The notes below the pieces were generated by a model, which saw only the letters and a list, made by a program, of their open reading frames with translations, was not told the DNA's origin and made no database searches. The position numbers were made by a program, and so were the translations under genes. A stretch of DNA of 64,000 nt from Chloroflexota bacterium (GTDB lineage Bacteria > Chloroflexota > Anaerolineae > Anaerolineales > VGOW01), in contig JACRBQ010000035.1 in NCBI GenBank assembly GCA_016213135.1, positions 149,722 to 213,721 of the forward strand. The letters run 5' to 3'. This document shows, piece after piece, positions 3,124-51,223 of this stretch. Numbering within the stretch: position 1 is the stretch's first letter; the number at the start of each line of letters is the position of its first letter.

Positions 3124-3184
3124 CCTCTATTATGCAAAATAAGCCGGATATTCTTCGACACGAATTAGCATACGCCCGCCGCCC

Positions 3185-3210
3185 CGTGACATAGAGTGCC
3201 AAATGTCACG
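3185..3210 (-). promoter_or_regulatory. Candidate operator upstream of the hdrL-type gene
   Basis: Perfect 8-bp inverted repeat cgtgacat-N10-atgtcacg, about 65-90 nt upstream of the start. It contains the box GTGCCAAATGTCAC, which recurs at 56833-56846 upstream of hdrC. Confidence 0.4.
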
Positions 3211-3279
3211 CGCTTGCCCGATAAGTTTCATCGGAAATGGAAAGATGGAATTGGACGAAAGGAGGCGAATTAGACCAAA

Positions 3280-3708: not shown

Positions 3709-3752
3709 GTGCGAAAGGGACTCCGGGAAACTGCCGGAATTCAAAGAACGCC

Positions 3753-12715: not shown

Positions 12716-13170
12716 ACGGGTTTGACGACCTGCCCAAGGCGTTTGAGTAGTGCGGCGATGATCAAGATAATGCTCCAGTAGAATGCAAATTCAAAGAACC
12801 CGAAGATAAGCGCCGAGGCAACGCTGACCTGCCGCAGCAAGGGGCACGCCTCGAACAATCGACGCCCGCAGATGGCCCGCAGGTGGCCGGGGAAAGAGTC
12901 GAGGCCGCCCAACAGGCAGAAGGTCACAGCGGCATTGCCCGGCAAGCGCAGGGCCAGCCACCACATTCCGAGCGCAATGGCGGCCTCGAGCAGGGCCATC
13001 AACAGCGGCATCATCCAGCGCGCCCGGTCGGCGAAGGCGTATTTGTAGCAGGTCTCCCATACGAATGAGTCTTGCATCACCCAAGTCCACAAGGCCAGCC
13101 AGAATGCCGCGGAGGCGATCACGAGCGGCCAGCCGTTCCGCTTCCGCCGACGTGGAATTGACAATCGCAT
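12712..13170 (-). CDS. Small hydrophobic membrane protein of unknown function
   Basis: 152 aa with several predicted TM stretches. Translationally coupled (ATGA) to the acetyl-CoA synthetase. The first ~13 codons are overprinted on acsE-derived sequence. The C-terminus FGFFEFAFYWSIILIIAALL has a paralogous fragment at 26143..26358. Confidence 0.55.
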   Translation of the reverse strand: MRLSIPRRRKRNGWPLVIASAAFWLALWTWVMQDSFVWETCYKYAFADRARWMMPLLMALLEAAIALGMWWLALRLPGNAAVTFCLLGGLDSFPGHLRAICGRRLFEACPLLRQVSVASALIFGFFEFAFYWSIILIIAALLKRLGQVVKPV

Positions 13171-13458
13171 TGGCCCGCCCGTTCTTGGCGATCTTTTTCA
13201 AGCCGACTTCAATCGCGGCAAGATTGGTGGTGTCGAACGACAGTGTCATGCCGCCAACCGCCTCTTGCACGCAATCCACCAGCCAGTCCGTCACTTCTGG
13301 CCCGGCTTTTTTCTGCGGGCCGATGTTGAGATCGAGCGCCTCGGCCCCGGCCTCCTTTTGCTTGCGCGCCAACTCCACAAAAAAAGCGCCGTCACGGGCG
13401 GCGAGCGCTTCCTTCACTTGGGCGAGATGATGTGGATCGATTCTCCGATGAGTAGCAT
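13131..13458 (-). pseudogene. Truncated, frameshifted duplicate of the acsE 5' end
   Basis: About 80% nt identity by eye to 10020..10349. ATG 13458 with AGGAGG RBS gives MLLIGESIHIISPK then TGA. A 1-nt deletion (cccaa-gtgaag vs cccaaagtcaaag) shifts the frame. The shifted frame continues KEALAARDGAFFVELARKQKEAG..NSTSAEAERLA, and homology ends there. Confidence 0.85.
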
Positions 13459-13674
13459 GGGGCCTCCTATTGGGGTTTCAATCACCCTATCACGCGCCTC
13501 ACCGCCTAGCCATTGCCAAACGTCCCGGATTCAAACTACAAAAAGTCACGCGGCGCGAGAATTTCCTTTGCTAATATCCATCCGATTTGTCTGGGTTGTT
13601 TGTTTTGTTTCTCAATGTGCCCAGGCAACCAAAAAGCCCCCCTGCGTTGACCGCGCCGTGAGCCACAATGGTGA

Positions 13675-15792
13675 TCATTTGATCAAGATCAACAGTTTGA
13701 TCACGTACAGTTGATACAAACCGCCGTCCTGACTACCAAAGTACACGTTGTAATCGCCGCCCACCACCACGCCGGAGCGCACGTCGCCGTTGGTGCTGCC
13801 GGAGGGCGGGCTGGTGGGGCCGGCACCGCTGTAAGCATTGGTGTCGTAATGGCCCAAGTCGCGTCCGGTGCGCGCGTCCAGCGCCCACACCGAGCCGTAA
13901 TCATTGTTGCCGGTGACGTTGCAGTTGCTGGCGGCGGCGCAGTTTGCGCCGACGATGATGATGCCGTCCACCAGCGCCGGAGACGATTTGACGCCACCCG
14001 GAATCAGCCGCACGCCGCCGGCGTTGTAGGCGCTGGGGTTGGTCGAAAACTCCGGGTTGGCTTGATCCGGCCCCGCGCCGTCGCCGTCAACGTTGTCCCA
14101 GATTGAATTGCCGTACACCGCGTCCAGCGCCCACACGCCGCCGGCCTTGTTCGCGCTTTCGTCGCCGTTGCCGCCGAAGATCACGCCGCAGTAAAACACC
14201 GGATCGGAACGGTGATTGAGTTGGCCGGTGTACTTGTGCCACACTTCCACGCCGGTGAGGGCATCGTAGGCATACAGATAGCCGTCCGTCGGCGCGCCGT
14301 ACACGCGGAGCGTGTCCGGAATGTTGTCGTAATTAGTGTCCACGTAGGCCACTGTGGGCGACTGGCGGTTATTATCGCCGCTGTTCGCCCAGTCCATATC
14401 AGTGGACGACAGCCACTTCTTCGAGCCGTCGCTGGAGTTGATGGCGTAGATGAACGGCGGATATTTGCCGGCCGGACTCCCGCCCCAGCCACTGTTCAGC
14501 AAATCCTTGCCGTGATCGGCGAGGTACACCACGCCGTTATACACAGCCACCGTGCCGTAAATGGGCGTGTATCCCCAGTGCGAGCTGACGTTGCTGGCGC
14601 CGATGCCCGCGCCGTCGAGAAATGTAGTTGTGACCCAGTTGGCCGGCACGTTGGTGTTCACGCTGGCGGCCGGTATCGGCGTGGAGCGCCAGAGGATGCT
14701 TCCGTTGAGGGCGTCAATCTTGTAGACATTGCCGCGCGAGGTGGCCGTGTAAATGTAATAGTTGCTCCCTTCCTGCGCCAACGCCGGGGAGGAGCGGTAC
14801 GCGCCGTCGCTGTTGTATTCGTCGTTGGTGTTGGCCGTCTGCCACAACACGTTGCCGTTGCGGGCGTCGAGCGCGTACGTCTTGCCGTTGTGGCCGTTGA
14901 CGAGCACGACGGGGTAATCGCTGTTCAGCCCGGGAATGATCGTGGTCAGCGGCGACGAGCGCACGTCGGTCACTTTATCCAGCGGTTGAAACCACAGCAG
15001 GCCGCCGATGTTCGCCCCGCCCGGAAGCGAGCGCTTGGTGTTGGCATAGGCGCCGCCTACGGCATCGTTGTAGCCTCCCGCCGTGCCGTACAAATTGGTG
15101 GCCGTGCCGCTGGAACCGTCCCAGGCATACACCCCCGAATAAGAGTCCGCGCCGCCTTTGGTCGGGCCGTTGGAGCCGACATAGGCCACGTAGTGGCCGC
15201 TAAAAATGCGCGAGTCGGCGTAGATGCCCGGCGTGGAGCGGTGATTCTGCGTGTCGCTTAATTCCCAGCGGTATCCCCACTGATAGCGGACGGACTCGAT
15301 GCCCGAATCCAGCGACAGGCACGTCTGGGAGCCGGTGCGAGTCGGGCCGCCGCGAAACATGGGATAGGTTTGATCGCCCGACCACGACGACCCCAGCGCC
15401 GTGGCTTTGGCCGATACGTCCACCGAGCCAATGTCGATGATGTTGAGGAATGTGGTTGGCACCGGGCGCTTGATTTCGACGGTGATGGAATCGTTGGGGA
15501 CGCGCACCTGGCCGACGACAACGGAGATGGTGTGGTTGGAGGGCAGGATGTTGTACAACGAAAGGTATTGCAGCGATTTATTGTAGGCGGCGGTGGCGCT
15601 GGGCAGTTCGGCGCCGCCGGCCAGGGCGGCGGCATCGGCGCGCGCGGCCAGGTCGGCGCGATTCCAGAAGACAATGGCCGAGTCGGTGGCTAATCCGATC
15701 ATCGCCGTCAGGCCGACGAAAATCAACGCCAGAATCACGATCATCTGTCCGCTTTCGGCGGACAAGGGGTGAGGCCGTGGTTGCTTGCTCAT
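13675..15792 (-). CDS. TadG-like N-terminal anchor fused to a PQQ/BamB-type beta-propeller
   Basis: N-terminus SGQMIVILALIFVGLTAMIGLATDSAIVFWNRADLAARADAAALAGG is TadG/Tad-like. It is followed by repeated blades with GNVLWQT, GSILWRS, GSKKWLS, GVEVWHK, GNSIWDN. Confidence 0.7.
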   Translation of the reverse strand: MSKQPRPHPLSAESGQMIVILALIFVGLTAMIGLATDSAIVFWNRADLAARADAAALAGGAELPSATAAYNKSLQYLSLYNILPSNHTISVVVGQVRVPNDSITVEIKRPVPTTFLNIIDIGSVDVSAKATALGSSWSGDQTYPMFRGGPTRTGSQTCLSLDSGIESVRYQWGYRWELSDTQNHRSTPGIYADSRIFSGHYVAYVGSNGPTKGGADSYSGVYAWDGSSGTATNLYGTAGGYNDAVGGAYANTKRSLPGGANIGGLLWFQPLDKVTDVRSSPLTTIIPGLNSDYPVVLVNGHNGKTYALDARNGNVLWQTANTNDEYNSDGAYRSSPALAQEGSNYYIYTATSRGNVYKIDALNGSILWRSTPIPAASVNTNVPANWVTTTFLDGAGIGASNVSSHWGYTPIYGTVAVYNGVVYLADHGKDLLNSGWGGSPAGKYPPFIYAINSSDGSKKWLSSTDMDWANSGDNNRQSPTVAYVDTNYDNIPDTLRVYGAPTDGYLYAYDALTGVEVWHKYTGQLNHRSDPVFYCGVIFGGNGDESANKAGGVWALDAVYGNSIWDNVDGDGAGPDQANPEFSTNPSAYNAGGVRLIPGGVKSSPALVDGIIIVGANCAAASNCNVTGNNDYGSVWALDARTGRDLGHYDTNAYSGAGPTSPPSGSTNGDVRSGVVVGGDYNVYFGSQDGGLYQLYVIKLLILIK

Positions 15793-15795
15793 TCT

Positions 15796-16452
15796 CTAAT
15801 TCCCTATGACGCGCATGATGGTGTACGAATACATTGGCACGCTGGCGTTCCAGATAAACAGCGGGTAACGGTAGAAAAATTCGACGATGACAAATTCATC
15901 CGTGCCGTTGGTTTGCGCGCCCTGGCTGAACCTCGACAGCACACTGCCCGACGTGAAGCGGCTGGCCTGGGTGTTGTCGAGGCCGGAAGCGTAGGCCGAG
16001 GTGTATGAGGTGATGGCTGATACGCCGCCGGTAGTGCTGGTCTGCACGCGGGTGACGATGATGGTGGCGTTCGTCGAGGTCATCGAGAGCGGGTACGCCA
16101 CAGTCTGCGTGGTGGAGGCGATCTGCGCCGGCGTGTAGGAGTAATCGTGCGAACCGTAGCGGGCGCCTTCGCGCGCGGCGTTGATCACGATGAGGTAGGT
16201 GTTGATCACCAGGCCAATCTGCACCAGCCCCACCAGAAAAGCCAACAGCATCGGAAAGAACAGCGCCGTCTCCAGCAAACTCTGGCCGCGCTCGCCCCAC
16301 GTATCAATCTCACTCTGAGCGGAACGACTAAAGTCGTCACTACGTTTTCGCGCCGTAGTAGCGACTTGAGTCGCGTTTTTCGGGGAACGACTAAAGTCGT
16401 CACTACGTTTTCGTGATCTACTATTAGTCGGAAATAGATCGGAAGCAGCCAT
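15796..16452 (-). CDS. TadE-like pseudopilin with repeat-derived leader peptide
   Basis: GERGQSLLETALFFPMLLAFLVGLVQIGLV matches the TadE/Flp-type processing motif (G/xxxxE plus a hydrophobic helix). The only in-frame start is ATG 16452, so a 44-aa leader carries RKRSDDFSRS twice. Confidence 0.7.
   Translation of the reverse strand: MAASDLFPTNSRSRKRSDDFSRSPKNATQVATTARKRSDDFSRSAQSEIDTWGERGQSLLETALFFPMLLAFLVGLVQIGLVINTYLIVINAAREGARYGSHDYSYTPAQIASTTQTVAYPLSMTSTNATIIVTRVQTSTTGGVSAITSYTSAYASGLDNTQASRFTSGSVLSRFSQGAQTNGTDEFVIVEFFYRYPLFIWNASVPMYSYTIMRVIGN
16321..16420. repeat. Three copies (direct, inverted, direct) of a CGACTAAAGTCG-type element
   Basis: ggaacgactaaagtcgtcactacgttttcg occurs at 16321 and 16384, with an inverted, diverged copy between them. 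A fourth copy lies at 60255..60303 with the same ttcgtgatcta tail. Confidence 0.9.
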
Positions 16453-17584
16453 TGTCGAATGTCATCTCCACTGAGTGATAGACGCCGCGCAGGGCATTGC
16501 CGTTTTCGAACACCAGCTCCATCGTCACCGTCTGGCCGGGGTCAACCGTCCGGCCCGGGCCGAGCCAGGCGGATTCCTTCGGAATGAGAGTCGGCGACTT
16601 GAAATCTTCCCCATTCCAGATCAGCGCGCCCCCCAAACGGATCAAGTCGAGTTCGCGCTCTCCCCATTCCGCTCGGAGATTTACCAGAGTGATCGGCGCG
16701 GCTTCCTGGTTGCTGACATTCAGCGACATTATCTCGGCGGCGAAATCAAAGCCGGTCAAGACAATCGCGCATCCCGGTGTGAACGTCGGGCCCAGCGCCG
16801 CTATGGTTGCGGTGGGCGGAAGCGTGGCCGTCGGGCTGGGGCCGGGCGTAACGGTGTTGGTCGGGGGTCGGGTGGCGGTGTGGGCGGGCGTGTGCGTGAG
16901 CGTCGGCGTCGGCGTCGGCGTGTCGGTGATGTTGTCGGCGCGAATCAGTTGACAGCCGTTTTCAAAAGTCAGTGTGAGGGCATAGCCGGAGGCCGAGGCC
17001 GGGTTGGCAAATTTGAAATTGAGCGCCTTGTTTGCTTTGGCGGCCAGGCCCCGGTTGCCGCCGTCTATCCAGTTTGACTCATCCGGCAGAAGAGTGGCCG
17101 GAGACGGATCATCGGGCGCGGCAATTTTGGAAGCGCCGAAGGCGGCTTCGAGCAAGCGGCCGTTTTCGGCGGGCCATTCCAGCAAAAGTGTTTTGACGAA
17201 CAGCGTGTCTGCGCCTTCGTTGAACACGGCCACCGATACGGTGTCGCCGCCGGTGGTGAACAGCCCGGCGCGCAGGCTGCCGCAGGCGCGCGGTTCGACG
17301 CTGCTCGTTGGCGCGGCGGCAACAACGCTGGCCGTGATCGCCGGCAGGGGCGTGGAGGTATCGAGCGGCGGCAGTGTGGGAAAGGCCACGTTGACCTGCG
17401 GCGGGAGCGCGGCGGTGGCCCCGCCGACCGGCTCGACGGGCGCGGGCGTCGCTCCGCCGCGCGCGGAAAGGAAGACGGCGACTCCGATGCCAACGACGAC
17501 GACGATGAGAACGAGGCCGAGGATCAGCAGTCCGTTGATCAACCGGTCGCCGCCGGAGTGGGAGGTTGAAGTCTGTCGAGTCAT
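16424..17584 (-). CDS. N-terminally membrane-anchored protein with two copies of an unrecognised Cys-bracketed domain
   Basis: TM helix LINGLLILGLVLIVVVVGIGVAVFL. Domain copies at aa 101-211 and 272-386 are separated by a Pro/Thr linker. Each copy begins with Cys and ends TF[ED]NGC. Confidence 0.75.
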   Translation of the reverse strand: MTRQTSTSHSGGDRLINGLLILGLVLIVVVVGIGVAVFLSARGGATPAPVEPVGGATAALPPQVNVAFPTLPPLDTSTPLPAITASVVAAAPTSSVEPRACGSLRAGLFTTGGDTVSVAVFNEGADTLFVKTLLLEWPAENGRLLEAAFGASKIAAPDDPSPATLLPDESNWIDGGNRGLAAKANKALNFKFANPASASGYALTLTFENGCQLIRADNITDTPTPTPTLTHTPAHTATRPPTNTVTPGPSPTATLPPTATIAALGPTFTPGCAIVLTGFDFAAEIMSLNVSNQEAAPITLVNLRAEWGERELDLIRLGGALIWNGEDFKSPTLIPKESAWLGPGRTVDPGQTVTMELVFENGNALRGVYHSVEMTFDNGCFRSISD

Positions 17585-17659
17585 TGGGCTGAAGAGAGGA
17601 GACTGTATTTCGGGTTATGGTTTACGCGCAAAAAACAATTACCGAATCCTCTCCTGAAT

Positions 17660-19462
17660 CTATTGGGTCTTTGTCAACGAGCATCCATTGTCGAACGTCA
17701 CGGTAACGGTGTAGCCGGTGCTGGCGGCGTTGTTGTTGAATTGGAATTCGAGTGTTTTAGTCTGTCCGGCGCTCAGCGCCACGCTGGAAAGCCAGCCGCC
17801 AGAGATGTTCGCCGGGGAAGTGTTGTCTCCTGTATCCCAGATGGTCGAGCCGCCGAACTTGATCTTTTTCAATTTGCCGTTTGTTCCGTCGGGCCACGAG
17901 ATGTCAATGCTGGTGATGGAGGCCGTGCTGCCGCCGCCGTTGGTGAAGTCGAGCAAAGCGGATTTGCCGGAGATGGAAATATTGGTGGCGGTGATGGCGC
18001 AGCCGGACGCCGTGCCGGTGAAATCCTGCGTCGGGCTGGAGCCGGAGATGGAGACGGTGGCAGAGGCCGGGCTGAAGGTGTAGCCGCCCAGACTGGCCAT
18101 CAGCGTGTACGATCCACTGCTCAACCCGGCCTTGCTGTAATAGCCGCTGCCGTTGGTGGTGGCGCTCCAGGACGAAGTGCCGCTGGCGTTGATCGTCACG
18201 CCCGAAATGGCCGCGCCGCCGCCGGTGCGCGTGTAGCCGGAGATGGAATAGGAGCAGGCGAAGTTGTTGCCGGTGGAACTCGCTCCGGCGATGCTGACGG
18301 AAATCGTGGACGGGGTGAACGTGCAGCCGGAGCCGCTCGGCGTTACCGTGTACGTTCCATTGCTCAAGCCGGAGAACGCGTAATTGCCGCTGCCGTCCGT
18401 GGTGGTGGCGCCGCTGCCCGCGCCGCCGAGCGTCATCGTTACGGCGGACGCGCCGGTCACCGTGCCGGAAATGCTGTATGTCGTCACCGGGCAGTTGGCG
18501 GAGAAGTTGTTGCCGGTGGAGTCCGCGTTGTTGAGGGTAACGCCGAGCGAGAGCGGGGCGAACGTGCAACCAGTTTTCGCGGGTGTGACGGTGTAACTGC
18601 CGTTCGCCAGACCGGTGAACGTGTAGTTGCCGCTGCCGTCGCTGGTGGTTGTGCTGCTGCTTGCGCCGGAGAGCGTCACCGTCGCGCCGGTGACGCCGAC
18701 CGCGCCGGATATGGAAAAGCCGGAGCAGGTTGGGGTGAAGTTATTGCCGCTGGAGCTTGACGTGGTGATGGTGACGACGAGCGAAGCAGGCGAAAACGTG
18801 CATCCGGTTTTGCCGGGGGCGATGGTGTACGTGCCGCTGTTCAAGCCGGTCAAGGTGTAATTGCCCACGGCATCCGTGGTGGCCGATCCGGTTCCGCCGC
18901 TGGTGATAGTGACCGTCGCCGCTGACAGGCCGGGGATGTTGCCGGAGATGCCGTACACGCCGCCGCCGCCGCCGAGCGCTTCGGCCACCGGCGTCACTTT
19001 GTCAATGCGCTCGGTGATCATGATCGCCCGCGCTTGCAAAGCCAGCACACCGGGCAGCAGGGTGACGCCGTTGAAACCGACGGGGATTAACGGCGCGTAG
19101 TTGTAGGAGACGGTGACGGTGATAATGGAGTTGGCGCTGCCGCCGTTGGTCGGGTTCACCGACACGTCGAGGTAGTTTGCGGAAGTGCCGGGCTCGACGG
19201 CGGCCGTGTCGGTGGATGGAGCCACAATCAGCCCGGCAGCGGCGGCGCGCGTTTTCGTCACAATCGAATCGGGCCGGTCGGCGGCCACGCCGGTGATGCT
19301 CTGCCCGGTAATGGCGTAGCGCCCGCCCTCGCGCGCCGCGTGTTCGATGGTGACATACGCCTGTACGAGACGCGCCATCTCAATCAGCCCGAACAGCATG
19401 AGCAGTACGATGGGCAGCATGAGAGCGAATTCGACCAGACCCTGCCCTTTTCGCGCGCGCAT
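17660..19462 (-). CDS. TadE-like N-terminus, five CarboxypepD_reg-like repeats and the same Cys-bracketed C-terminal domain
   Basis: Start MRARKGQGLVEFALMLPIVLLMLFG (ATG 19462, GGAGGA RBS). Five repeats of the type GNYT[LF]TGL.[NS]G[ST]YT[IV].P.K[TS]GCTF.P. C-terminus CAITATN..VTFDNGCSLTKTQ. Confidence 0.75.
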   Translation of the reverse strand: MRARKGQGLVEFALMLPIVLLMLFGLIEMARLVQAYVTIEHAAREGGRYAITGQSITGVAADRPDSIVTKTRAAAAGLIVAPSTDTAAVEPGTSANYLDVSVNPTNGGSANSIITVTVSYNYAPLIPVGFNGVTLLPGVLALQARAIMITERIDKVTPVAEALGGGGGVYGISGNIPGLSAATVTITSGGTGSATTDAVGNYTLTGLNSGTYTIAPGKTGCTFSPASLVVTITTSSSSGNNFTPTCSGFSISGAVGVTGATVTLSGASSSTTTSDGSGNYTFTGLANGSYTVTPAKTGCTFAPLSLGVTLNNADSTGNNFSANCPVTTYSISGTVTGASAVTMTLGGAGSGATTTDGSGNYAFSGLSNGTYTVTPSGSGCTFTPSTISVSIAGASSTGNNFACSYSISGYTRTGGGAAISGVTINASGTSSWSATTNGSGYYSKAGLSSGSYTLMASLGGYTFSPASATVSISGSSPTQDFTGTASGCAITATNISISGKSALLDFTNGGGSTASITSIDISWPDGTNGKLKKIKFGGSTIWDTGDNTSPANISGGWLSSVALSAGQTKTLEFQFNNNAASTGYTVTVTFDNGCSLTKTQ

Positions 19463-19807
19463 TGTTTTTCTATCCTCCATCGTGTGCAAAGCAAACCCGT
19501 CAAACACGCAGACCGATTCGGCGTGCTTTTATGAATAGAGAGACTAAAGGGGATAAAAATACAGGAGATGACTATTGGGGGGAAAACAAAGAGGCGGCCA
19601 CATGGGCCGTCCCTTATTGTTACCACATTTCTTAGTAAGGCGATGCCGACGTGATAGTCCGCCGCGCCCTTCAACTTCGCGGCGCAAGCACCCTGAGCGC
19701 AGTGCGGCGTAGTTCCGCACGAAGTCGAAGGGGTGCGCCGCTGCGCGCAGGATGCCTTGCCGTAAACCAATTAGGAAACCGTTCTAAGGCTGGCAGTTAC
19801 TGCAATT

Positions 19808-21106
19808 CTACTTCGGCGCGCCGAGTGCGGAAGTCAGGTTGATGCGCCCCGGCGCGTTTTCCTCGCCGCCTTCCTTCTTATTCCCGCCCTCGCCCACTTT
19901 CACTTTGGATATTTTCTTGACAATCGTCTCACTCACTTTGGCCGCATTCCACTCTGGATGTTGAGCGATGAGCAGCGCGGCTTCGCCGGAGACAAACGCT
20001 GCCGACATCGAAGTGCCAGCGCCGCTGGCGTAACCGTCATTGGCGAATGTACTAAAAATATCCACGCCGGGCGCAAAGACATCGGTGTCTTTGGTCCTTC
20101 CGCCGGAAAATGCTGCGACGACATCTTCCGAGTCGGTTGCGCCCACGCCCAGCACTGACCGCGCGCTCGGCCCGCCGAAAGCCGCCGGATAATTGGCGCC
20201 TTCGCCGTCTCCGGCAGCGGCCACCACCACCACGCCGCGTCCAATCGCGTAATTGAGCGCATCGGACAGAGACGGCGTAAGCCGCGGCGCGCTCATGCTC
20301 AAGTTGATCACCCGCGCGCCGTGATCCACGGCATATCGGATCCCGGCGGCCACTTCCCAATACGTGCCGATGCCGTCCGAGTTCAGCACGCGCACCGGCA
20401 AGATCATCGCCCCCGGCGCAAGGGTGTGAACGATCCCGGCTATGTGCGTGCCGTGCCCCGTACCTTCGTCAATCAACCCGTTGCCGTCGTTGTCCAACCC
20501 GTCGCCGCGATCATACGGATCGTCGTCCATGCCGACGAAATCGTAGCCCGGCAGAAGCGCGCCGGCCAGCGCGGGATGATCCAGATCAATGCCGCTATCA
20601 ATGATGGCGACGATCACGCCCTGCCCGGTGGACACCGACTGCGCCGACGACAAACCGATTTTCTTCCACGCCCATTGATCCTTTGACGCGCCGCCCGAGG
20701 CCGAATCGCCATGCCCGCCAAAGTAACGCTGTCCGCCGGCCGGGAACGATCCGTGGCCGCCAAAATAGCGTTGGCTTCCGCCCGGAGCCGCGTCGGCGTA
20801 ATAGTTCGGTTCGGCGTAGAAGAGATCGGGGTCGGCGTTGAGCGCGGGCAGAAGCGCATCGGCGGCCTGCCCTGCCGGAAGCTGCCAGAGAGTTAGATTC
20901 GTTTCGGTGACGACGCCCGTCACCGTTGCACCATAGCGGGCGGCGAGGAGCGCGCTATCCACGCCCGGCTTCGGCTTGACCACCACTTGATCGGATGGCA
21001 CGTCGGGCAGTTTGGAGTCCGCGCGGACGATTCCGGCAGACCCGACGGCAACGGCCAGCGCCAACCCGACGGCGACGATCATTTTGAGAGAGTGTATTGC
21101 GCGCAT
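19808..21106 (-). CDS. Secreted subtilisin-family (S8) serine protease
   Basis: Signal peptide MRAIHSLKMIVAVGLALAVAVGSAGIVRA. Catalytic triad contexts IIDSGIDLDHP, GHGTHIAGIV, GTSMSAAFVSG. Internal duplication QRYFGGHG x2. Confidence 0.9.
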   Translation of the reverse strand: MRAIHSLKMIVAVGLALAVAVGSAGIVRADSKLPDVPSDQVVVKPKPGVDSALLAARYGATVTGVVTETNLTLWQLPAGQAADALLPALNADPDLFYAEPNYYADAAPGGSQRYFGGHGSFPAGGQRYFGGHGDSASGGASKDQWAWKKIGLSSAQSVSTGQGVIVAIIDSGIDLDHPALAGALLPGYDFVGMDDDPYDRGDGLDNDGNGLIDEGTGHGTHIAGIVHTLAPGAMILPVRVLNSDGIGTYWEVAAGIRYAVDHGARVINLSMSAPRLTPSLSDALNYAIGRGVVVVAAAGDGEGANYPAAFGGPSARSVLGVGATDSEDVVAAFSGGRTKDTDVFAPGVDIFSTFANDGYASGAGTSMSAAFVSGEAALLIAQHPEWNAAKVSETIVKKISKVKVGEGGNKKEGGEENAPGRINLTSALGAPK

Positions 21107-21187
21107 GTGAACTGTCCTTTCGTTGGGGCGAAGCATTCGCCAACAAGCGCCCGGTTTTATCGGAGCTGAGAGGCGAATGCCTCGCCC

Positions 21188-24040
21188 CTACTGTTCGCTC
21201 CCCACCAGCGCTAACGGCGCCCAAATGTAGGGGTGATCATTCTCTTTTATCAACGTCATCTGCGCCTGCCGCAGCGCTTGTGCTTTGGGCCGTCCGGCCA
21301 ACAACGCTTTGTAAAATTCGGCCATCAACTTCGTGATCGATTCGTCGTCTACCATCCACAGGCTCACCAGGAGCGAGGGCGTCCCGGCATACAAAAACCC
21401 GCGCACCAGGCCGATCAAATCGTCGCCGCCGGCCACGCGGCCCAGCCCGCTCTCGCAGGCGCTCAGCGTGACGAGCGAAGCGCGCAGTTCGAGGTCATAC
21501 ACATCCTGCGCGGCTAACCAAGCATCCGCCAACCGCACGGCAGAAAGCAATGGGGCTTCCGGGCGAAACAGCCCGTGCGCCGCGAAATGCAGGAGGCCAG
21601 AATCCGGCGCAAGTTCGCGCACCCTGGCCGCCGTTGCCTCTTCGCCGATCAATGTCCTAGCATCGGGGAACAAGCGGGCGAGCGTTTGCGCTTCCTGCGT
21701 CACGCGCGCGGCGCGCTCGTCGGGCACGCCCACAAACAACGGCTGGCTGTAGGGTAGACCCTCGCCCCGTCCGGCCTTCTCGCGGCAGAACTTCAACACC
21801 GAGGCGCTGGGCGCATACGAAACCGAGTGCGTCTCGACGAGGTAGCACCCATCCGCATACAGCGCGTGAAAAGGCAAGTGGTGCAATAGTCCGTGCGGGA
21901 TAACGATCAGCGACTCCGCATCGGCGATCTCCGACCACAGCGGCGCGATCAGCGCTGTGCGAAGCTGCCCCAGCACGTCAACCGTTCCGGCGCGGAGCGC
22001 CTCGCGATGCCGGTTGAAGTAGTCCGGCCCATATTGAAACTTGGAAAGCTGAAACGCCAGCCCGTCCAACAGCGGCGAAAGCGACGCCGCCGAGACGAGA
22101 TTCAAATGAACGCGCAGGCGACCAGGGCGGACGACAAACGCCATCACCTGTCCGCGCGCAATGAAGTATTCGATCAGAGCGGCGCCCGGCGGCAGGTCGG
22201 CCTGCGCTTCCTCCGCCGAAACTGCGGTGACGCGCTGCAACGATAAATGCTCGGCGTGTTTGGCCTGAAGGTCGCGCCACAGACTCACCGCTTGCCGCTC
22301 ACGCTCAAGGATCTTGCGGTGCACCTCGGGCCCGGCGGGCGGCGGCCCGGCCTCGCCGGGTTTATCGCCGCCCATAATGCGCGAGTACAGCCAGTTCAAC
22401 TCGTCGCGCACCGATTGCAGTTCTTCGGCGCGGCGCGCGTCAACGGCGTCGGCCAGGCGCAGGCGCGGGCGCACGGCGGCGGCTAGCAGATCAACCAGCG
22501 CGCGCGACTTGGCCCGCTCGGCCCATCCGAACGACTTGGCGCTGTCACCCGGCGCAGTGAGCAGGGCCAGCGCTTCGTACGGCGCAAGCTTATCGGCGAC
22601 AAACGCCGTGCGGTGTTCGTCGGCGGCGAGCGAGGCGACAATGGTTTCCAATTCTTCAACGGCGCGGCGGTAGTAGGGCAACGCCGATTCCGGCTCGTTC
22701 AATCCCTCGTAGACGCGGCCGTATCCGGCCCAGATTCTCTGCCACAGCCACGGCGCAGATAAGTCTTTCAAGGCGATGCGCGCCACTTGCAGCGCGCCCA
22801 GCGCATCTACCCACAGCCGCTCATCGGCCAGCAGAGTCGCGCGGAAGATTTCGGCGTACGCGTGTTTTGTTTGTAGTCCCAGCCGCCGGTACGCTTCCGA
22901 CGCGCCGGAGATGTTCGTCCGCGCCTTGGCTCTGGCTCCGGCGCGGCCCAGCACTTCGGCCCGCGCCAGATCGACGTGCGCGGCCCACACCTCGTTGCCC
23001 TCGGCGGCGAACAATTCGCGCGCCTGCGCCAGCAGCGCCAGCGCGCTACCCGACCCAAGCCGCGCCAGGGCCACTGCTTTGTTCGCCTGCGATCTTGCCA
23101 ATTCAAAATTCATGCCGAGAGCGGCGAAAATTTCCCCGGCTTGTCCGGCGAGGCGCAGCGCTTCCTGCGGCAGATTCAGTTCAAGGTAAATATCGCTTTC
23201 GTGGAGGTCAATGTACGCCGCTTCCATCGGAATATCAATGGCGGCAAACGCCGCGCGCGCGCGCTCAAACACGCGCAGCGCATCGCCGTAGCCCCCGCGC
23301 GCATAATGGAGAAAGGCCACGTCGTGATCGACCATCGCCACGGCCGCCCGCAGTTCCGCCGAGTCGAACACCGGGCGCGCCTGAACGTATAATTCTTCCG
23401 CGCCGCGAAAATCGTCGAGCACCGTCAACACGTTGGCCTCATTCACCTGTGTCATGGCGACGGTTAACGCTTCACCCGATGCCTCGCAGGCCGCGCGCGC
23501 GCGGCGGAAGTACCGGAGCGCCTCCGCATGGCGTTCCTGCCGGGCGCACAAATTACCTAGATTCATTTCCAGCTTGGCTTGCGAGAAAGTATCGCCCTCG
23601 ACGGCAAAGACCTGAACGGCCGACTCGGCGAGCGTCTGGGCTTCGTCGTACCGGCCCAGATACATGAGCGCATCCACGCGTCCAATGCTCGTGCGGGCCG
23701 CTTCAAGGGGCCGTTGCGCCGCGTGAAAGAGATCGGCGGCGCGCGTGTAGTGTTGAACAGCAGATTCGTTTTCGCCTAACGAGGCGTGGGCGTTAGCCTG
23801 CCCCCAGACCCCCAGCGCGCGCGCCGCCGGGTCCGTTACCGTCTCGGCGGCCTCTTCGGCCATGCAGGCGATGGCCAGCGCCTGCCGCGCATCGTCGCGC
23901 TCGACTTCGTCTACGCGATTCTTCAGGGCGCGGACGATCTCATACCGGATGCTCTCAGGTTGTCCGGCCAACAAGCGACGGCGCGCATCGGCGTCGGGCG
24001 CGGCCAGCAGCCTCTCCATCAGCGGCTCGCTATCCGGCAT
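21188..24040 (-). CDS. TPR-repeat CHAT-domain (caspase-fold) protease
   Basis: 950 aa. The N-terminal about 500 aa are TPR-like helical repeats. The C-terminal CHAT domain has intact His/Cys contexts LLHFAAHG and LVTLSACESG. Confidence 0.85.
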   Translation of the reverse strand: MPDSEPLMERLLAAPDADARRRLLAGQPESIRYEIVRALKNRVDEVERDDARQALAIACMAEEAAETVTDPAARALGVWGQANAHASLGENESAVQHYTRAADLFHAAQRPLEAARTSIGRVDALMYLGRYDEAQTLAESAVQVFAVEGDTFSQAKLEMNLGNLCARQERHAEALRYFRRARAACEASGEALTVAMTQVNEANVLTVLDDFRGAEELYVQARPVFDSAELRAAVAMVDHDVAFLHYARGGYGDALRVFERARAAFAAIDIPMEAAYIDLHESDIYLELNLPQEALRLAGQAGEIFAALGMNFELARSQANKAVALARLGSGSALALLAQARELFAAEGNEVWAAHVDLARAEVLGRAGARAKARTNISGASEAYRRLGLQTKHAYAEIFRATLLADERLWVDALGALQVARIALKDLSAPWLWQRIWAGYGRVYEGLNEPESALPYYRRAVEELETIVASLAADEHRTAFVADKLAPYEALALLTAPGDSAKSFGWAERAKSRALVDLLAAAVRPRLRLADAVDARRAEELQSVRDELNWLYSRIMGGDKPGEAGPPPAGPEVHRKILERERQAVSLWRDLQAKHAEHLSLQRVTAVSAEEAQADLPPGAALIEYFIARGQVMAFVVRPGRLRVHLNLVSAASLSPLLDGLAFQLSKFQYGPDYFNRHREALRAGTVDVLGQLRTALIAPLWSEIADAESLIVIPHGLLHHLPFHALYADGCYLVETHSVSYAPSASVLKFCREKAGRGEGLPYSQPLFVGVPDERAARVTQEAQTLARLFPDARTLIGEEATAARVRELAPDSGLLHFAAHGLFRPEAPLLSAVRLADAWLAAQDVYDLELRASLVTLSACESGLGRVAGGDDLIGLVRGFLYAGTPSLLVSLWMVDDESITKLMAEFYKALLAGRPKAQALRQAQMTLIKENDHPYIWAPLALVGSEQ

Positions 24041-24620
24041 CGTGTATCTCTAATCCCTCGATGGCAACTTCGCGCGAATCGGATTCGATAACCAGATCGT
24101 AGTTGCCGAGAGGAACGGGGCGAAAAGCGAATCGTCCGAACGAATCCGCGCCCACGTCGTCGATCACTTCCCCGGCGCGGTGCAAACGGACAATGGAGGG
24201 CTGCTCACCGCCGAGTATCTGCCCGACCAGAGTCGCTCCGCCTTCGGCGAAATGGATCTGCAAGTCAATATCCAGCCCTTCTGCCGTGAACAGCAACTGT
24301 CGGGCGCGCGCCGCCGGGCCGCGTACCGCGGCCAGCGGCGATTGGCGGTAGTTATCAAACACCAGCATGGCCGCGATGCGGACGCGAGGCGGCGCGGCCG
24401 GCCGCGCGCGAAACGCAGCCACTGCACGCCGCAGAGTTTCTTCGGGCGGAGCGACGGTGTCGTCATTCGCCAATGCGCCCAACGCCGCGCGAATCCGGGA
24501 GAGTTCGACGCTGCACTGCGAACACGGCCCGGCGAGGTGTTCGTCAATCGCGGCGCGGGCTTCGCGCGGAAGCGAGTCTTCGACGTAATCGAGCAGGCTG
24601 GCAAAAGATGGATGGGTCAT
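24030..24620 (-). CDS. Soluble zf-HC2-type anti-sigma factor with Ig/CarboxypepD_reg-like C-terminal domain
   Basis: Start MTHPSFASLLDYVEDSL (ATG 24620). Motif HLAGPCSQC. No hydrophobic TM segment. C-terminus GRFAFRPVPLGNYDLVIES. Overlaps the CHAT start by 11 bp. Confidence 0.7.
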   Translation of the reverse strand: MTHPSFASLLDYVEDSLPREARAAIDEHLAGPCSQCSVELSRIRAALGALANDDTVAPPEETLRRAVAAFRARPAAPPRVRIAAMLVFDNYRQSPLAAVRGPAARARQLLFTAEGLDIDLQIHFAEGGATLVGQILGGEQPSIVRLHRAGEVIDDVGADSFGRFAFRPVPLGNYDLVIESDSREVAIEGLEIHDAG

Positions 24621-24700
24621 GTGTGTTCCATTCTGTTCCCTGCGAATTCTCCCTGATGTATAGAGACGCAAACAGGAGGGAAAATACCTACCAAGCGGGC

Positions 24701-25276
24701 TTACTCAAATCCTGTGCTTTTGAGTATGCCAAGCAGTTTTTCCAGACAGCGGGCGCGCGTAGGGCCGATACTGCCCAACGGCAGGTCGAGAATATCGGCG
24801 ATCTCCTCGTAAGAAGGCTGGGGGTGCGCATAAAACAACAGCGTAATCAACTGGCGGCAGCGCGAGTCGAGCCGCTGTACAGCCATGCGAATAAGTGTCA
24901 ATTGCTCGAGTCGGGAGAAAATGTCTTCGAGAGAGGAGTCGTCATCGGGTAGATTTTCGATCAGCGCGAAATCAGGCCCGTCGGCCATGCGCCGCCGCTG
25001 GCGAGCCTGCCGCCAACACTCGCGGCGCGTCGTGATCACCAGCCAGGCGACGAGGCGCGTGCGGTCGCGCAGACGCGCCAGATTTTCCAACAACAGCATC
25101 CAAACTGCTTGAAAGATGTCGTCGGCGGCGCTCTCCGGCAGGCCGTAGCGGAGAGGAATGGAGTAAATGAGGCGTTGATACCGAAGGATGAGGGCTTCCC
25201 ACGCGCGCGCATCCCCGGCCAGACAGGCGTCAATTATTTCGGAATCGGCGAGTGTCAGAAAATCGGGCGGGGGCAT
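24701..25276 (-). CDS. ECF-type RNA polymerase sigma-70 factor
   Basis: Region 2 (YQRLIYSIPLRYGL..ADDIFQAVW) and region 4 (SYEEIADILDLPLGSIGPTRARCLEKL). Alternative GTG start at 25318. TATACT lies 10 nt upstream of ATG 25276. Confidence 0.85.
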   Translation of the reverse strand: MPPPDFLTLADSEIIDACLAGDARAWEALILRYQRLIYSIPLRYGLPESAADDIFQAVWMLLLENLARLRDRTRLVAWLVITTRRECWRQARQRRRMADGPDFALIENLPDDDSSLEDIFSRLEQLTLIRMAVQRLDSRCRQLITLLFYAHPQPSYEEIADILDLPLGSIGPTRARCLEKLLGILKSTGFE

Positions 25277-25324
25277 AGACGAACTAGTATACCGCGATTG
25301 CCCCGGCCACACACTCACCGTGCA

Positions 25325-25573
25325 CTAGTGATCATCGCCGCCCGGTTCGCCGTCATCACCGCCACTTCCCCCACTGCCACCACCGGAGCCGGGTGTGTGA
25401 GTCGGTTCAGGCGTGCGGCTCGGCTCATCCGCTTTCGTTGGCTCGCGCGGTTTTCCGGCTCTTTGGTTTTGGGACGGCTCCGGCGTCTTGCTCGGCTTTT
25501 TGGTCTCGGGCGGCGCGGGAGTCTTGCTCGGCTCTTTCAGTTCGGTTGGTATGCCGGGAATTTCCTTTGCCAT
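25325..25573 (-). CDS. Hypothetical low-complexity Pro/Thr/Lys-rich small protein
   Basis: ORF only (MAKEIPGIPTELKEPSKTPAPPETKKPSKTPEP..GSGGGSGGSGGDDGEPGGDDH). It overlaps another candidate ORF, 25425..25757, in a different frame, so its coding status is unresolved. Confidence 0.3.
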   Translation of the reverse strand: MAKEIPGIPTELKEPSKTPAPPETKKPSKTPEPSQNQRAGKPREPTKADEPSRTPEPTHTPGSGGGSGGSGGDDGEPGGDDH

Positions 25574-26323
25574 GCCGGTGATGTAGTGATAGGCGGGGAT
25601 CCAAATACGCCACGTCCAAGTCGTTCACCGCATAACTTTCCCACTGCCCGTCCCCGTGCCGCAATTCAACCGACAGGCTCGACTTCGAAGCCACCACTTC
25701 ATAATCACTCTGCTGCAAGCGCGGGTTGTCGGCGACGGCGTCGGCCAGACTCGGCACGGGGTTGGCGCGGCCCGTTTTGGCGCGGAGATCAAAACCGCCG
25801 GTGAGGGCGTCGGTGTCCTCAAAATACAGTTTGTTTCACTTCGTGAACCACCCCAAAAAAGGAGACTGCAGCACGATTACCGAGCAGAAAGCGGTTCCAA
25901 AAGGAGTTTTTGGCTTGTTTTGCCCGAATCCAAGTCATTCCCAATTAGACGCTCCTATTTCCTAGTATTGGCAGGGCCGACACTCTCCACAGAATATGTC
26001 GTGCCTTTATGGGCGCAACCCAAAACACCTGTAGAACAAGGGCAAACCGCGTGCTTTTACGCTAAACGCATAGTGATCGGAACGGATTTTCTACCACAAA
26101 CTAACTCGGTAGTGTTGCTACAGTCTCCAAAAAAGCCCATGTTTATTTCTGTCCGTGAGGCAAAATCACGCCAGAGTCGGGAGGGCCGTTTTTTGCGATT
26201 CTCGCGACTCTCCGGGCCACTACGGCGAGGGTCAATATCACGCACCAATAAAAGATAAACTCAAACACGCCAAAGGTGGGGGCAGATACTACGCTTGAGG
26301 TGGCGCGGAACTCTGGCATAGCC

Positions 26324-27472
26324 TTAACCCTCCAACAGGGTCTTTTGACCCATGACAACCTCCTCCAACTTCCTCAAGTTCGTGTCTGTCGGGATTCCTT
26401 TCTCGTCCCAATGCAAGTTGCAGCCGACGTAGTCGAGCAACAGGCCCTGCGCGGGAACGCCCGCCGACTCCATTTCCCAGCCGCCGCCCCAGTTGGTGAG
26501 CGCACACGCCACGCCGACCACGCCTACATCCGCGCGACCCGTTCCCGCTGCAAACACACGCAATTCGTCGGGGATGCTGTAAACCTCGAAGCCGCGCTTC
26601 TCGCCCAGCCTGGTGATCTGGTGAACACGGCACGTTGGCGTGCAATGCCCGCACCGCGCCCCGAGCGGCGTGGCGACGGCCTGGCACTTCTCCTCCGGCT
26701 GGGCGCGCAAGCATGGCGGCACAATCACAATGCGGCGTCGCGTCGCCAGGAACCGCGCGCGGTAGGCCCGGCTGAGTAGCTCTGTGCCCAACATGCCAAG
26801 GTGATATTCCAACCGCGAGCGCGAGACGAACGCGGCATCATACCGCGCCCGATAGTTGGGGGCGCAGTCGGCCAGGAAACACTCGACGCCCGTGGTGAAC
26901 GAGTTAAGCGCCTCCGCGCCGGCCGCGGCGAAGTCGGCGGCCAACGCATTGCTGACGGCCACCACCTCGGCCCCTTTCGCGGGTTCCGAATTCAGCCAAC
27001 GCTGCCACTGTTCCAACCGCCCGGCTTTGGCCGTCTCGCCGTTCGCCCGCAGCCAGGCAATCAAGCGCCGCACGTCTTCACGGTCGGCCGGTGGCCCGCC
27101 GAACCGCACGCTCAGACCATTCAGCCACCCGCGCCATTGTTTCAGCGTTGCTTCCGCTGCCGGCCAACGAACCTGCCAGTCCACCAACCAGCGCTGAACG
27201 CGCAGCCACCAACCGGGCAGGCGCGCGGCCTCGCCACCGTGCTGGCGCAGCAGCACCCCCAACGCCAGCATTTCAAACGCGTACTCCGCGTCGGATCGAT
27301 CCGGCTCGCCGCGCTTCTGCCGATCGGCCCGGATGCGGGCGATAATCTGGCAGACGTCGCCATCGGACAACACTCCCGCCAGCCAATGGTCGGCAAAGGC
27401 GGCCACCGTGCGGTAGTAATCGTCCGAGTCGCGCCCGTTGAGGCGCAGGTTGTAAGTGATGATGCGAGTCAA
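26324..27472 (-). CDS. Cys-rich DUF116-like protein with helical Trp/Arg-rich N-terminal extension
   Basis: The C-terminal about 170 aa (IVIVPPCLRAQPEEKC..ARCGHCTPTCRV..VVGVACALTNW..DYVGCNLHW) match my recollection of the DUF116 Cys pattern. No HMM search was run. Confidence 0.5.
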   Translation of the reverse strand: MTRIITYNLRLNGRDSDDYYRTVAAFADHWLAGVLSDGDVCQIIARIRADRQKRGEPDRSDAEYAFEMLALGVLLRQHGGEAARLPGWWLRVQRWLVDWQVRWPAAEATLKQWRGWLNGLSVRFGGPPADREDVRRLIAWLRANGETAKAGRLEQWQRWLNSEPAKGAEVVAVSNALAADFAAAGAEALNSFTTGVECFLADCAPNYRARYDAAFVSRSRLEYHLGMLGTELLSRAYRARFLATRRRIVIVPPCLRAQPEEKCQAVATPLGARCGHCTPTCRVHQITRLGEKRGFEVYSIPDELRVFAAGTGRADVGVVGVACALTNWGGGWEMESAGVPAQGLLLDYVGCNLHWDEKGIPTDTNLRKLEEVVMGQKTLLEG

Positions 27473-51218: not shown

Positions 51219-51223
51219 GGGAC

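Follow-up and report, generated by a model that had tools for sequence, protein, structure and literature searches.

We analyzed a stretch of 64,000 nucleotides from a Chloroflexota bacterium (contig JACRBQ010000035.1; hereafter the window, to which the coordinates of Table 1 refer), in which eight genes occupy positions 13675-25318 of the minus strand. They code for a sigma factor with extracytoplasmic function (ECF), an anti-sigma factor, a TPR-CHAT protein, a subtilase of the S8 family and four further proteins termed g4, g3, g2 and g1, two of which are TadE-type minor pilins (proteins MBI5291260-MBI5291267 at NCBI). A preliminary description of this DNA had taken the eight genes for one single system. 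All eight open reading frames (ORFs) are present as described there, and nearly all of the domain calls were borne out by ORF reading and searches against Pfam and NCBIfam. The evidence given below nevertheless leads us to a different conclusion: the locus probably combines two modules of four genes each, which evolve separately and are wired together here at the promoter level. Module A (19808-25276; sigma factor, anti-sigma factor, CHAT protein and S8 subtilase) would be a regulatory switch and Module B (13675-19462; g4-g3-g2-g1) a pilus tip cluster.

The layout of the genes was said to be tight, with short gaps or overlaps throughout. This is correct for the anti-sigma and CHAT genes with their 11-nt overlap but not for the spacer between the S8 gene and g4, which measures about 345 nt and contains a terminator-like hairpin as well as a promoter-like motif. 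We therefore conclude that the eight genes do not form one tight operon. In comparison with the closely related L015, about 155 nt of GC-rich sequence are inserted in the same spacer, between the S8 stop codon and the hairpin (~19625-19790). The RNA fold of this insertion is no better than that of shuffled sequences (z = -1.4) and it has no Rfam match; a search of positions 12500-27000 against Rfam found no structured RNA at gathering thresholds.

Table 1. Genes and sequence elements of the locus
Feature	Position	Strand	Remarks
ECF sigma gene	24701-25276	-	191 aa; ATG 25276; ECF group 4
Anti-sigma gene	24030-24620	-	196 aa; soluble, class-I-like zinc type
TPR-CHAT gene	21188-24040	-	950 aa; start overlaps the anti-sigma stop by 11 nt
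S8 subtilase gene	19808-21136	-	secreted; begins 51 nt past the CHAT gene
g4	17660-19462	-	TadE-type minor pilin; four CarboxypepD_reg repeats and C-terminal Cys-bracketed beta-sandwich
g3	16424-17584	-	single-pass membrane protein; Pro/Thr-rich linkers, two Cys-bracketed beta-sandwiches; non-pilin
g2	15796-16452	-	TadE-type minor pilin; leader lengthened by duplicated 24-nt core
g1	13675-15792	-	TadG-like N-terminus (Tad/Tad_C) and large PQQ-type beta-propeller; candidate pilus-tip adhesin
TATACT	25286-25291	-	housekeeping-type -10-like hexamer, 9 nt 5' of the sigma start
P_ECF-1, GTATTTT-N15-CTCTAT	24660-24687	-	sigma/anti-sigma intergenic; candidate cognate ECF promoter
P_ECF-2, GTATTTT-N15-CTCTAT	19535-19562	-	5' of the Tad-like cassette; candidate promoter
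Terminator-like GC hairpin with T-rich tail, CCTCTTTGTT	19585-19609	-	stem 19609-19595; consensus match only

Module A, a conserved four-gene cassette

The sigma factor is recognized by TIGR02937 (77.6 bits, cutoff 42.9) and Sigma70_r2 (39 bits, cutoff 24), while Sigma70_r4 stays below its cutoff (19.8 against 24.1 bits); SigH, SigE and RpoE are its closest relatives of solved structure. A start at GTG 25318 was rejected in favor of ATG 25276, as it would lie 5' of the TATACT element.

The anti-sigma factor has no transmembrane segment. It reaches only 15.1 bits with the Pfam model zf-HC2 (cutoff 22.2) but is matched by NF052375 with an E value of 5e-9, and a profile of its family matches the solved anti-sigma domains of DdvA (the best), RslA, RsiW and ChrR with E values from 8e-4 to 3e-2. 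The zinc motif reads H28-x4-C33-x2-C36 with H3 in addition, compared with H-x3-C-x2-C in the definition of the class I anti-sigma domain (ASD), also known as zinc-binding anti-sigma (ZAS) domain. H3, H28, C33 and C36 are kept in 82-83 of 84 homologues, and F88, D89 and R100 are also invariant in this set of 84 sequences. An AlphaFold2 (AF2) model (pLDDT 82.7) consists of four N-terminal helices and a C-terminal CarboxypepD_reg-like beta-sandwich, and a loop of lower confidence between both domains (residues 91-105) carries R100. A fold search with the model returned beta-sandwiches only and none of them at E <= 0.001; the helical domain was recognized through the sequence profile and not through the fold search. 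Homology thus suggests that the protein is an anti-sigma factor of a class-I-like zinc type which would bind and inhibit the sigma factor encoded next to it. As P_ECF-1 falls within the longer ORF that begins with TTG 24671, this start was rejected and ATG 24620 is favored.

The third protein has a CHAT domain (222.6 bits, cutoff 24) whose catalytic dyad, His822 and Cys862, is invariant in seven orthologues. It is joined to TPR repeats (TPR_12, 62.5 bits, and several other TPR families), which resemble RapJ, RapF and NprR weakly (E 1e-5 to 1e-7) and no better than they resemble generic TPR proteins. Neither a signal peptide nor a transmembrane segment is present. The S8 subtilase (Peptidase_S8, 148.8 bits) has an N-prodomain similar to Fervidolysin_NPro (32.8 bits), the triad motifs DSG, HGTH and GTSMS are readable in its sequence, and its hydrophobic N-terminus ends in VRA/DS. 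A signal peptide was present on every S8 N-terminus examined (about 30 loci). As judged by their sequences, the CHAT protein and the anti-sigma factor are cytoplasmic and the S8 subtilase is secreted.

The quartet of these genes recurs in about 85 independent loci of Chloroflexota, Acidobacteriota, Verrucomicrobiia and Dormibacterota. Six of the loci come from metagenomes and 80 from GTDB genomes. The latter are the best loci among 580 relatives found by a scan with a CHAT alignment through one genome per GTDB species; hidden Markov models (HMMs) of our own for the four proteins were then applied to these 80, and the complete quartet was recovered almost everywhere. The S8 gene belongs to the cassette in about 80 of the 85 loci and is found 3' of the CHAT gene, or after the anti-sigma gene where the order is sigma, CHAT, anti-sigma. 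The order of the window (sigma, anti-sigma, CHAT, S8) is that of Chloroflexota and Pyrinomonadaceae, and the order sigma, CHAT, anti-sigma, S8 is seen in Terriglobia, Verrucomicrobiia, Dormibacterota and Limnocylindria. The nearest GTDB relatives of the CHAT protein in the window are from Anaerolineae (51-60% identity). Starting from the anti-sigma family, a word-indexed search gave 17 matches, and each one with a readable context lies in the arrangement of sigma factor, anti-sigma factor, TPR-CHAT protein and S8 subtilase; with an exhaustive profile search, full-length representatives (about 200 aa, 50% clustering) were retrieved by the hundreds. An HMM search detected no ORF with a TadE domain within 10 kb in any of the 80 genome loci. 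Module A is hence conserved and independent of Module B.

Module A is apparently undescribed. The literature searched, which did not extend to the supplements of the ECF classification, contained no description of a cassette composed of sigma factor, soluble ZAS-like anti-sigma factor, TPR-CHAT protein and S8 subtilase, and the main text of the ECF re-classification (PMC7826278) mentions no CHAT, caspase or subtilase. It is possible that the cassette was catalogued earlier as an ECF group.

About 49 loci of the Terriglobia type show a recurrent context. Translational coupling links the sigma gene there to the final gene of an ABC importer of the Opp/Dpp type, which comprises two ABC_tran+oligo_HPY ATPases, two permeases and an SBP_bac_5 substrate-binding protein; the sigma start abuts the stop codon of the latter. 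An HD_5 (HD-GYP-like) protein of about 230 aa is encoded directly after S8. In the Terriglobia-type loci among L035-L099 the cassette thus stands within a conserved locus of about ten genes (e.g., L041, 3465-15871, and L037, 3864-15881). In L005 a GGDEF-EAL protein is encoded close to the cassette. These contexts hint at a tie to peptide import and cyclic di-GMP signaling. In some genomes (L039, L044 and L053) the cassette is present twice or has an additional tandem pair of sigma and anti-sigma genes beside it; in L044 a sigma gene (6949-7620) and a 219-aa partner are followed by the canonical set. The Anaerolineae-type locus L002 has 5' of its cassette a cluster of thymidylate synthase, HMUDK_hel, thymidylate kinase, Peptidase_M78 and HTH genes (1182-5892) which is reminiscent of a phage-type module for hypermodified bases.

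A putative promoter motif before anti-sigma and cargo genes

The pattern GTATTTT-N12-18-CTCTAT occurs exactly twice in the window, compared with 0.00 occurrences expected from 100 shuffles. P_ECF-1 ends 39 nt before the ATG of the anti-sigma gene, and P_ECF-2 is found just past the hairpin 3' of the S8 gene and 72 nt before the ATG of g4. Essentially every locus with the gene order of the window has a bipartite motif, TGTATTTTT-N14-16-CTCTAT(A/T), in the spacer that separates the sigma from the anti-sigma gene. In Pyrinomonadaceae its -10 half reads GCACTGT and extra copies of the motif occur 5' of the S8 gene. The 51 loci of the other gene order have a related motif, CCTATATTTTT-N13-14-CCCTTAT, between the CHAT and anti-sigma genes. 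With the gene order changed, this related motif still precedes the anti-sigma gene; it is thus the anti-sigma gene that the motif accompanies, not the sigma gene. The variant of the -10 half (CTCTAT, GCACTGT or CCCTTAT) is uniform across all sites of a locus.

Seven Anaerolineae loci (L020, L022, L026, L028, L029, L030 and L033) contain extra copies of the motif 5' of the first gene after S8. The genes behind these copies code for cellulases of glycoside hydrolase families GH9 or GH5 with the carbohydrate-binding modules (CBM) CBM2, CBM3 or CBM64, and in several of the cellulase-linked loci the S8 protein itself carries a CBM_3 domain. P_ECF-2 is conserved in L015, which is 77% identical to the window, and is absent from the stand-alone Tad cassette of L013. 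Across phyla the anti-sigma operon and the cargo next to it are therefore tagged by this rare bipartite motif, and both sites of the window are among these. From this distribution we infer that GTATTTT-N15-CTCTAT is the cognate promoter of the ECF sigma factor. The preliminary description had suggested that the Tad-like genes are under control of a dedicated sigma factor, and this part of it gained support from the motif search: with the same rare motif before g4 and before the anti-sigma gene such a control is likely.

The sigma gene itself has no P_ECF-like motif at its 5' side. Instead, of the 17 Anaerolineae-type loci which we inspected 15 show TATACT at 3-15 nt 5' of the sigma start; TTGACA-N17 often stands upstream of this hexamer, whose position in the window suggests a leaderless or nearly leaderless sigma mRNA. 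Autoregulation of the sigma gene by the ECF factor was therefore rejected. The classical GTAAC...CGT pattern was rejected as a motif of the whole cassette, for it is found in a Terriglobia subset only, 5' of the S8 gene, and is absent from the window. In a Terriglobia subset (L037, L040, L041, L056, L058, L065, L067, L069, L078, L080, L092 and L095) a second conserved element, GTAACC-N7-9-(G/A)ATTAC-N4-5-YGTAA, is located between the anti-sigma and S8 genes, about 80-110 nt 5' of the latter, and could be a second promoter, a regulatory RNA or an operator.

The Tad-like cassette and the surrounding genes

Both g4 and g2 match TadE well above its cutoff of 22.9 bits (53.3 and 45.3 bits, respectively); the leader of g4 is of the prepilin type (MRARKGQG/LVEFAL), and that of g2 reads ERGQ/SLLETAL. 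In g4 CarboxypepD_reg is matched over four stretches (96.8 bits), one fewer than the five repeats counted before. A GGAGGA ribosome-binding site lies 10 nt 5' of ATG 19462, and because of this strong site an alternative start of g4 at GTG 19507 was rejected. The C-terminal domain of g4, for which Pfam has no model, is homologous to both domains of g3 (E 5e-16 and 7e-14). The Cys-bracketed domain which had been announced as new is consequently real and repeated, and it is also fused to TadE in other proteins.

For g3, of which we found nine full-length orthologues, there is no Pfam match at all. Its AF2 model has a transmembrane helix (residues 13-40) and two beta-sandwiches at pLDDT ~80-85, which in a Foldseek search resemble generic Ig/FnIII-like folds such as that of RbmA. 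Pilin-like N-termini had been assigned to all four proteins; this holds for g4 and g2 and, with a sub-threshold Tad match, for g1, but not for g3 with its plain transmembrane helix. The beta-propeller of g1 was confirmed (PQQ_2, 58.8 bits). The TadG-like identity of g1 is supported by its orthologue in L013, because this protein passes the threshold of PF13400 (24.7 bits) with the same residues, 15-61; the positional equivalents of g1 in L017 and L018 are clear PF13400 proteins (43.5 and 39.6 bits). With 218-705 aa the four proteins are not giant, as they had been called.

The leader of g2 holds a 24-nt core, CGTAGTGACGACTTTAGTCGTTCC, in two identical copies (16321-16344 and 16384-16407, minus strand) which are spaced 63 nt apart and form a small hairpin each. 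They lengthen the leader in frame, code twice for RKRSDDFSRS and are found at no other site in the window. The start of g2, MAASDL..., is common to the L013 orthologue, whose leader is without the insertion.

Module B is found as an independent four-gene cassette. L013 (57% identity) keeps the gene order g4-g3-g2-g1; the neighbor of its cassette is a divergent two-component system, and sigma, CHAT and S8 genes are absent. L017 and L018 contain looser cassettes which consist of TadE (joined to the Cys-bracketed domain), a variable gene, TadE and Tad (PF13400). Outside the locus of the window the Tad-like cassette is adjoined by two-component systems. An adjacency of CHAT, S8 and TadE genes is repeated only in L015/L016, and these loci (77% identity) are syntenic with the window through the neighboring Pterin_bind and malic-enzyme genes. 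The proposed conservation of the gene neighborhood accordingly applies to the syntenic L015, where the two halves are adjacent, and fails in the non-syntenic genomes examined, where they are separate.

As previously noted, the window contains no machinery for a Tad pilus: no T2SSE Walker motif was found in the 64 kb, and no T2SSE, T2SSF, Peptidase_A24 or Flp protein is encoded among its approximately 50 main ORFs. Nor did such machinery turn up in L013, L017 or L018 up to 10 kb from the cassette. In Myxococcus four detached clusters of TadE/F/G-like genes code for Tips which are interchangeable on one Tad pilus encoded elsewhere (PMC12075869). Genomes of Anaerolineales have a transcribed pilA-cpaB-cpaE-cpaF-tadB-tadC cluster, in which TadE, TadF and TadG are not named (PMC4877987). 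By analogy, the most economical reading is that Module B would be another such detached cluster and supply minor pilins for the tip of a Tad pilus whose genes are located elsewhere.

The flanks of the locus are metabolic, with genes for an ADP-forming acetyl-CoA synthetase, DUF116, RACo, CODH/ACS (carbon monoxide dehydrogenase/acetyl-CoA synthase) and Hdr/Mvh-like proteins. A Wood-Ljungdahl or CODH/ACS neighborhood with RACo, CdhD, a Prismane/CODH protein, a Pterin_bind methyltransferase and MvhD- and HdrA/C-like Fe-S flavoproteins is spread over 30985-32955, 35449-36891, 45259-47274, 9414-10349 and 51459-56585. The host is probably an anaerobic acetogenic or acetate-oxidizing member of the Chloroflexota. 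The 1 kb between the sigma and DUF116 genes (25325-26323) contains no convincing gene and has a slightly lower GC content (0.60); a low-complexity ORF of 82 aa rich in Pro, Glu, Lys and Gly (25325-25573, minus strand) overlaps a 36-nt tandem repeat at 25456-25537. At 56956-57710 (minus strand) a gene for a 148-aa PIN-domain protein overlaps an ORF of 103 aa on its 5' side, and this pair looks like a toxin-antitoxin system of the VapBC type. Six long plus-strand ORFs without Pfam match (16-1269, 1945-3168, 36848-37981, 38403-41531, 43566-44654 and 49617-51227) have a third-position GC content of about 0.61-0.67, as compared with about 0.8 in the confirmed genes, and are probably spurious antisense ORFs of a high-GC genome. 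Real minus-strand genes beneath them may have been missed through the greedy choice of ORFs.

The proposed switch, its alternatives and known systems

We propose the following model for the locus, in which all mechanistic steps beyond gene content and motif conservation are conditional. The sigma gene would be read constitutively from its own housekeeping-type, nearly leaderless promoter, and the soluble zinc-type anti-sigma factor would, going by its homologues, hold the sigma factor. The genes for the anti-sigma factor, the TPR-CHAT protein and the S8 subtilase as well as a variable secreted or surface cargo would be placed behind the sigma-specific promoter, an arrangement which would bring about negative feedback and would make the secreted subtilase an obligatory output. 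A cytoplasmic cue bound by the TPR array would cause the caspase-like CHAT protease (clan CD) to cleave the anti-sigma factor and would thus free the sigma factor. The cleavage step is modeled on Csx29/Csx30/CASP-sigma, on CalpL/CalpT/CalpS and on the proposed autoproteolysis of DdvA, and the invariant Arg100 in the loop of the AF2 model is, speculatively, a candidate for the P1 residue. An imported oligopeptide or oligosaccharide, perhaps a product of the secreted S8 protein, may act as the cue; this idea comes from the Terriglobia-type loci, in which the sigma and CHAT genes are joined to the Opp/Dpp-type importer operon. In the window, a prepilin peptidase would process g4, g2 and g1, which would then become part of a Flp/Tad pilus encoded elsewhere, and since a second copy of the sigma-specific promoter precedes Module B the switch likely decides on the timing of the adhesive tip. 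Related Anaerolineae would have the same switch and promoter before their cellulase genes.

A farther-reaching version can be offered only tentatively and may well be wrong. According to it Module A would be a caspase switch which works in the cytoplasm, is spread broadly over the phylogeny and has a housekeeping role, as a counterpart of Craspase without CRISPR: breakdown products made by the secreted S8 subtilase would be imported and sensed by the TPR-CHAT protein in a self-priming scout-enzyme loop, the anti-sigma factor would be cut after the invariant Arg, and secreted polymer-degrading enzymes or, as here, an alternative Tad tip would be turned on.

Several points weigh against the composite model. 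The assignment of the motif to the sigma factor comes from co-occurrence, and the motif lacks the AAC-type -35 and the CGT-type -10 elements which are typical of many ECF promoters. In Anaerolineae the CHAT gene is itself placed behind the sigma-dependent promoter, so a basal level of CHAT protein must be assumed. The zinc anti-sigma factor could be inactivated by oxidation instead, and for the strictly conserved S8 protein the roles of output, signal generator and maturase are all conceivable. As to Module B, the Tad and Tad_C matches of g1 (PF13400, 18.3 against 22.3 bits; PF09977, 15.5 against 22.1 bits) are both under threshold, g3 has no known counterpart in the characterized tip complexes, and the Tad machinery was not found in a search which covered 64 kb of the genome.

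One alternative, which takes up the preliminary description, sees in all eight genes one dedicated system, in which the pilin-like N-termini would serve only as anchors or for display, independent of any pilus, and the CHAT and S8 proteases would process the envelope proteins. The genes are indeed co-directional, both halves share a promoter motif, the synteny is kept in L015 and the window is without Tad machinery. This absence from 64 kb is silent on the rest of the genome, though, and detached TadE/F/G clusters which serve a distant Tad machine are documented (PMC12075869), so the notion of stand-alone display anchors finds no support. Nor is control of the envelope proteins by the proteases supported; the CHAT protein is cytoplasmic and lacks an export signal, and its likeliest substrate is the anti-sigma factor. 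As the two halves moreover are apart in every non-syntenic genome examined (no TadE within 10 kb of Module A in the 80 genome loci; Module B alone in L013, L017 and L018) and the cassette has cellulases as cargo elsewhere, we regard one eight-gene system as very unlikely. Conversely, the adjacency of the two modules could be accidental, the Tad-like cassette being under another sigma factor or regulator and the motif before g4 being no target of the ECF sigma factor. Two-component systems beside the cassette elsewhere would fit with this, and an AT-rich motif could be a generic UP-like element. Yet 0.00 occurrences of the full bipartite pattern are expected by chance, and in the window it is confined to these two sites; it marks the cargo beside the cassette in seven other Anaerolineae loci and is missing in L013, and the -10 variant co-varies within loci. 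An accidental adjacency thus seems quite unlikely to us.

Within Module A the sigma factor might be released without cleavage by the CHAT protein, either by oxidation of the HHCC zinc site in the manner of the RsrA-type ZAS domain or by partner switching; the substrate of the CHAT protease would then be the sigma factor, the S8 precursor or precursors of the cargo. Redox sensing by ZAS domains is an established mechanism and the set of zinc ligands is invariant. On the other hand the CHAT and anti-sigma genes are inherited together in about 85 loci, their ORFs often overlapping or being coupled, the exposed loop carries an invariant Arg, and there are three precedents of sigma-releasing proteases, which make a release of this kind unlikely, if the least so of the alternatives. 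A role of Module A in anti-phage defense or abortive infection, akin to Craspase or DdvA, with the CHAT and S8 proteins as effectors and the sigma factor inducing defense genes, would agree with the fact that the characterized links between CHAT proteins and sigma factors are all from defense contexts (PMC11506125, PMC10028731, 10.1101/2023.06.23.546230) and with a match of the S8 protein to the generic PADLOC model 'subtilase'. We consider such a role highly improbable: PADLOC has no match for the sigma factor, the anti-sigma factor or the CHAT protein, the Csx29 model NF041237 is matched with 58.9 bits where 300 are required, no CRISPR array is present in the window, the S8 protein is secreted, and instead of defense islands the neighborhoods hold genes of metabolism and those for cellulases, an HD-domain protein and an Opp-type importer.

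If the composite model is correct, signaling from a CHAT protease to a sigma factor is not peculiar to CRISPR or defense islands but a common regulatory device of soil and sediment bacteria from several phyla. The defined promoter motif would make the regulon predictable from sequence, and the model would give a handle on when the poorly studied Anaerolineae and Acidobacteriota deploy cellulases, proteases and adhesive pili, traits which are central to biomass turnover and to the formation of flocs and biofilms. Swappable Tad tips would extend from Myxococcota to Chloroflexota, with the tip under a dedicated sigma factor. The cassette, the promoter motif and the concept of its cargo are results that can be reused.

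Dedicated pairs of sigma and anti-sigma factors which drive genes of secreted cellulases are known from Clostridium thermocellum, where SigI/RsgI signaling also involves proteolysis of the anti-sigma factor. RsgI is a transmembrane anti-sigma factor that senses polysaccharide outside the cell via CBM-like domains; in Module A the sensor-protease and the anti-sigma factor would be cytoplasmic and the sigma factor is of another family. The RRNPP sensors Rap and NprR are cytoplasmic TPR proteins which sense peptides and have DNA binding or phosphatase activity as output. Module A shares with them the cytoplasmic TPR array and, in the Terriglobia type, the genetic association with a secreted protease and an importer of the Opp type; its proposed output is by contrast a protease domain acting on an anti-sigma factor, and no propeptide gene was identified.

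Closer in its parts is DdvA/DdvS, which like Module A combines an ECF sigma factor, an N-terminal zinc anti-sigma domain (a putative one in Module A) and a TPR-CHAT region with a His-Cys dyad (PMC11506125), and for both systems proteolysis of the anti-sigma factor is the proposed mode of release. DdvA is, however, a single transmembrane polypeptide with a periplasmic TPR-CHAT part and depends on RseP, whereas Module A has two separate soluble cytoplasmic proteins and the secreted S8 subtilase as an obligatory fourth gene. The regulons differ as well, cellulase or pilus-tip genes being the putative targets of Module A and CBASS/CRISPR those of DdvA, and so does the distribution, with at least 580 genomes for Module A and only a few Myxococcota for DdvA. 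In the type III-E Craspase the cytoplasmic TPR-CHAT protein Csx29 cleaves the soluble, sigma-binding Csx30 and frees the ECF factor CASP-sigma/RpoE (PMC10028731, 10.1101/2023.06.23.546230). The CHAT domain of Module A is detectably similar to that of Csx29 (E 3e-6, with the NF041237 score far below its cutoff, as given above). Nevertheless Module A has a putative zinc anti-sigma domain in place of Csx30, its activator would not be a target RNA, the window contains neither Cas7-11 nor other cas genes nor a CRISPR-like array, and there is no PADLOC match to Craspase. The third precedent is the SAVED-Lon protease CalpL, which cuts the anti-sigma factor CalpT and so frees the ECF factor CalpS (10.1101/2023.06.23.546230). 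A cytoplasmic protease which is activated by a ligand and cuts an anti-sigma factor is what this system has in common with our model of Module A. CalpL has a Lon protease, a SAVED sensor of cyclic oligoadenylate and a CRISPR context, and Module A a CHAT protease of clan CD with a TPR array.

Module B and the Kil Tips of Myxococcus are both small clusters of two TadE/F-type pilins and a large protein of the TadG type (in Module B the TadG-like g1) with a variable C-terminal module (PMC12075869). Both have Cys-rich extracellular domains and are encoded away from the pilus machinery, and the likeness to KilL, KilM and KilN is one of gene layout. In contrast to the Kil Tips, Module B has a PQQ beta-propeller, CarboxypepD_reg repeats, the new Cys-bracketed beta-sandwich and with g3 an additional non-pilin membrane protein, belongs to a host of the Chloroflexota and is apparently controlled by the ECF/CHAT switch. 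To sum up, Module A would work like DdvA/DdvS, Craspase and CalpL/CalpT/CalpS but is a member of none of them, as it has neither the single transmembrane polypeptide of DdvA nor the Csx30 and CRISPR components of Craspase, and Module B is probably a variant of the TadE/F/G tip clusters, from which it departs through its unusual C-terminal modules and an additional membrane protein.

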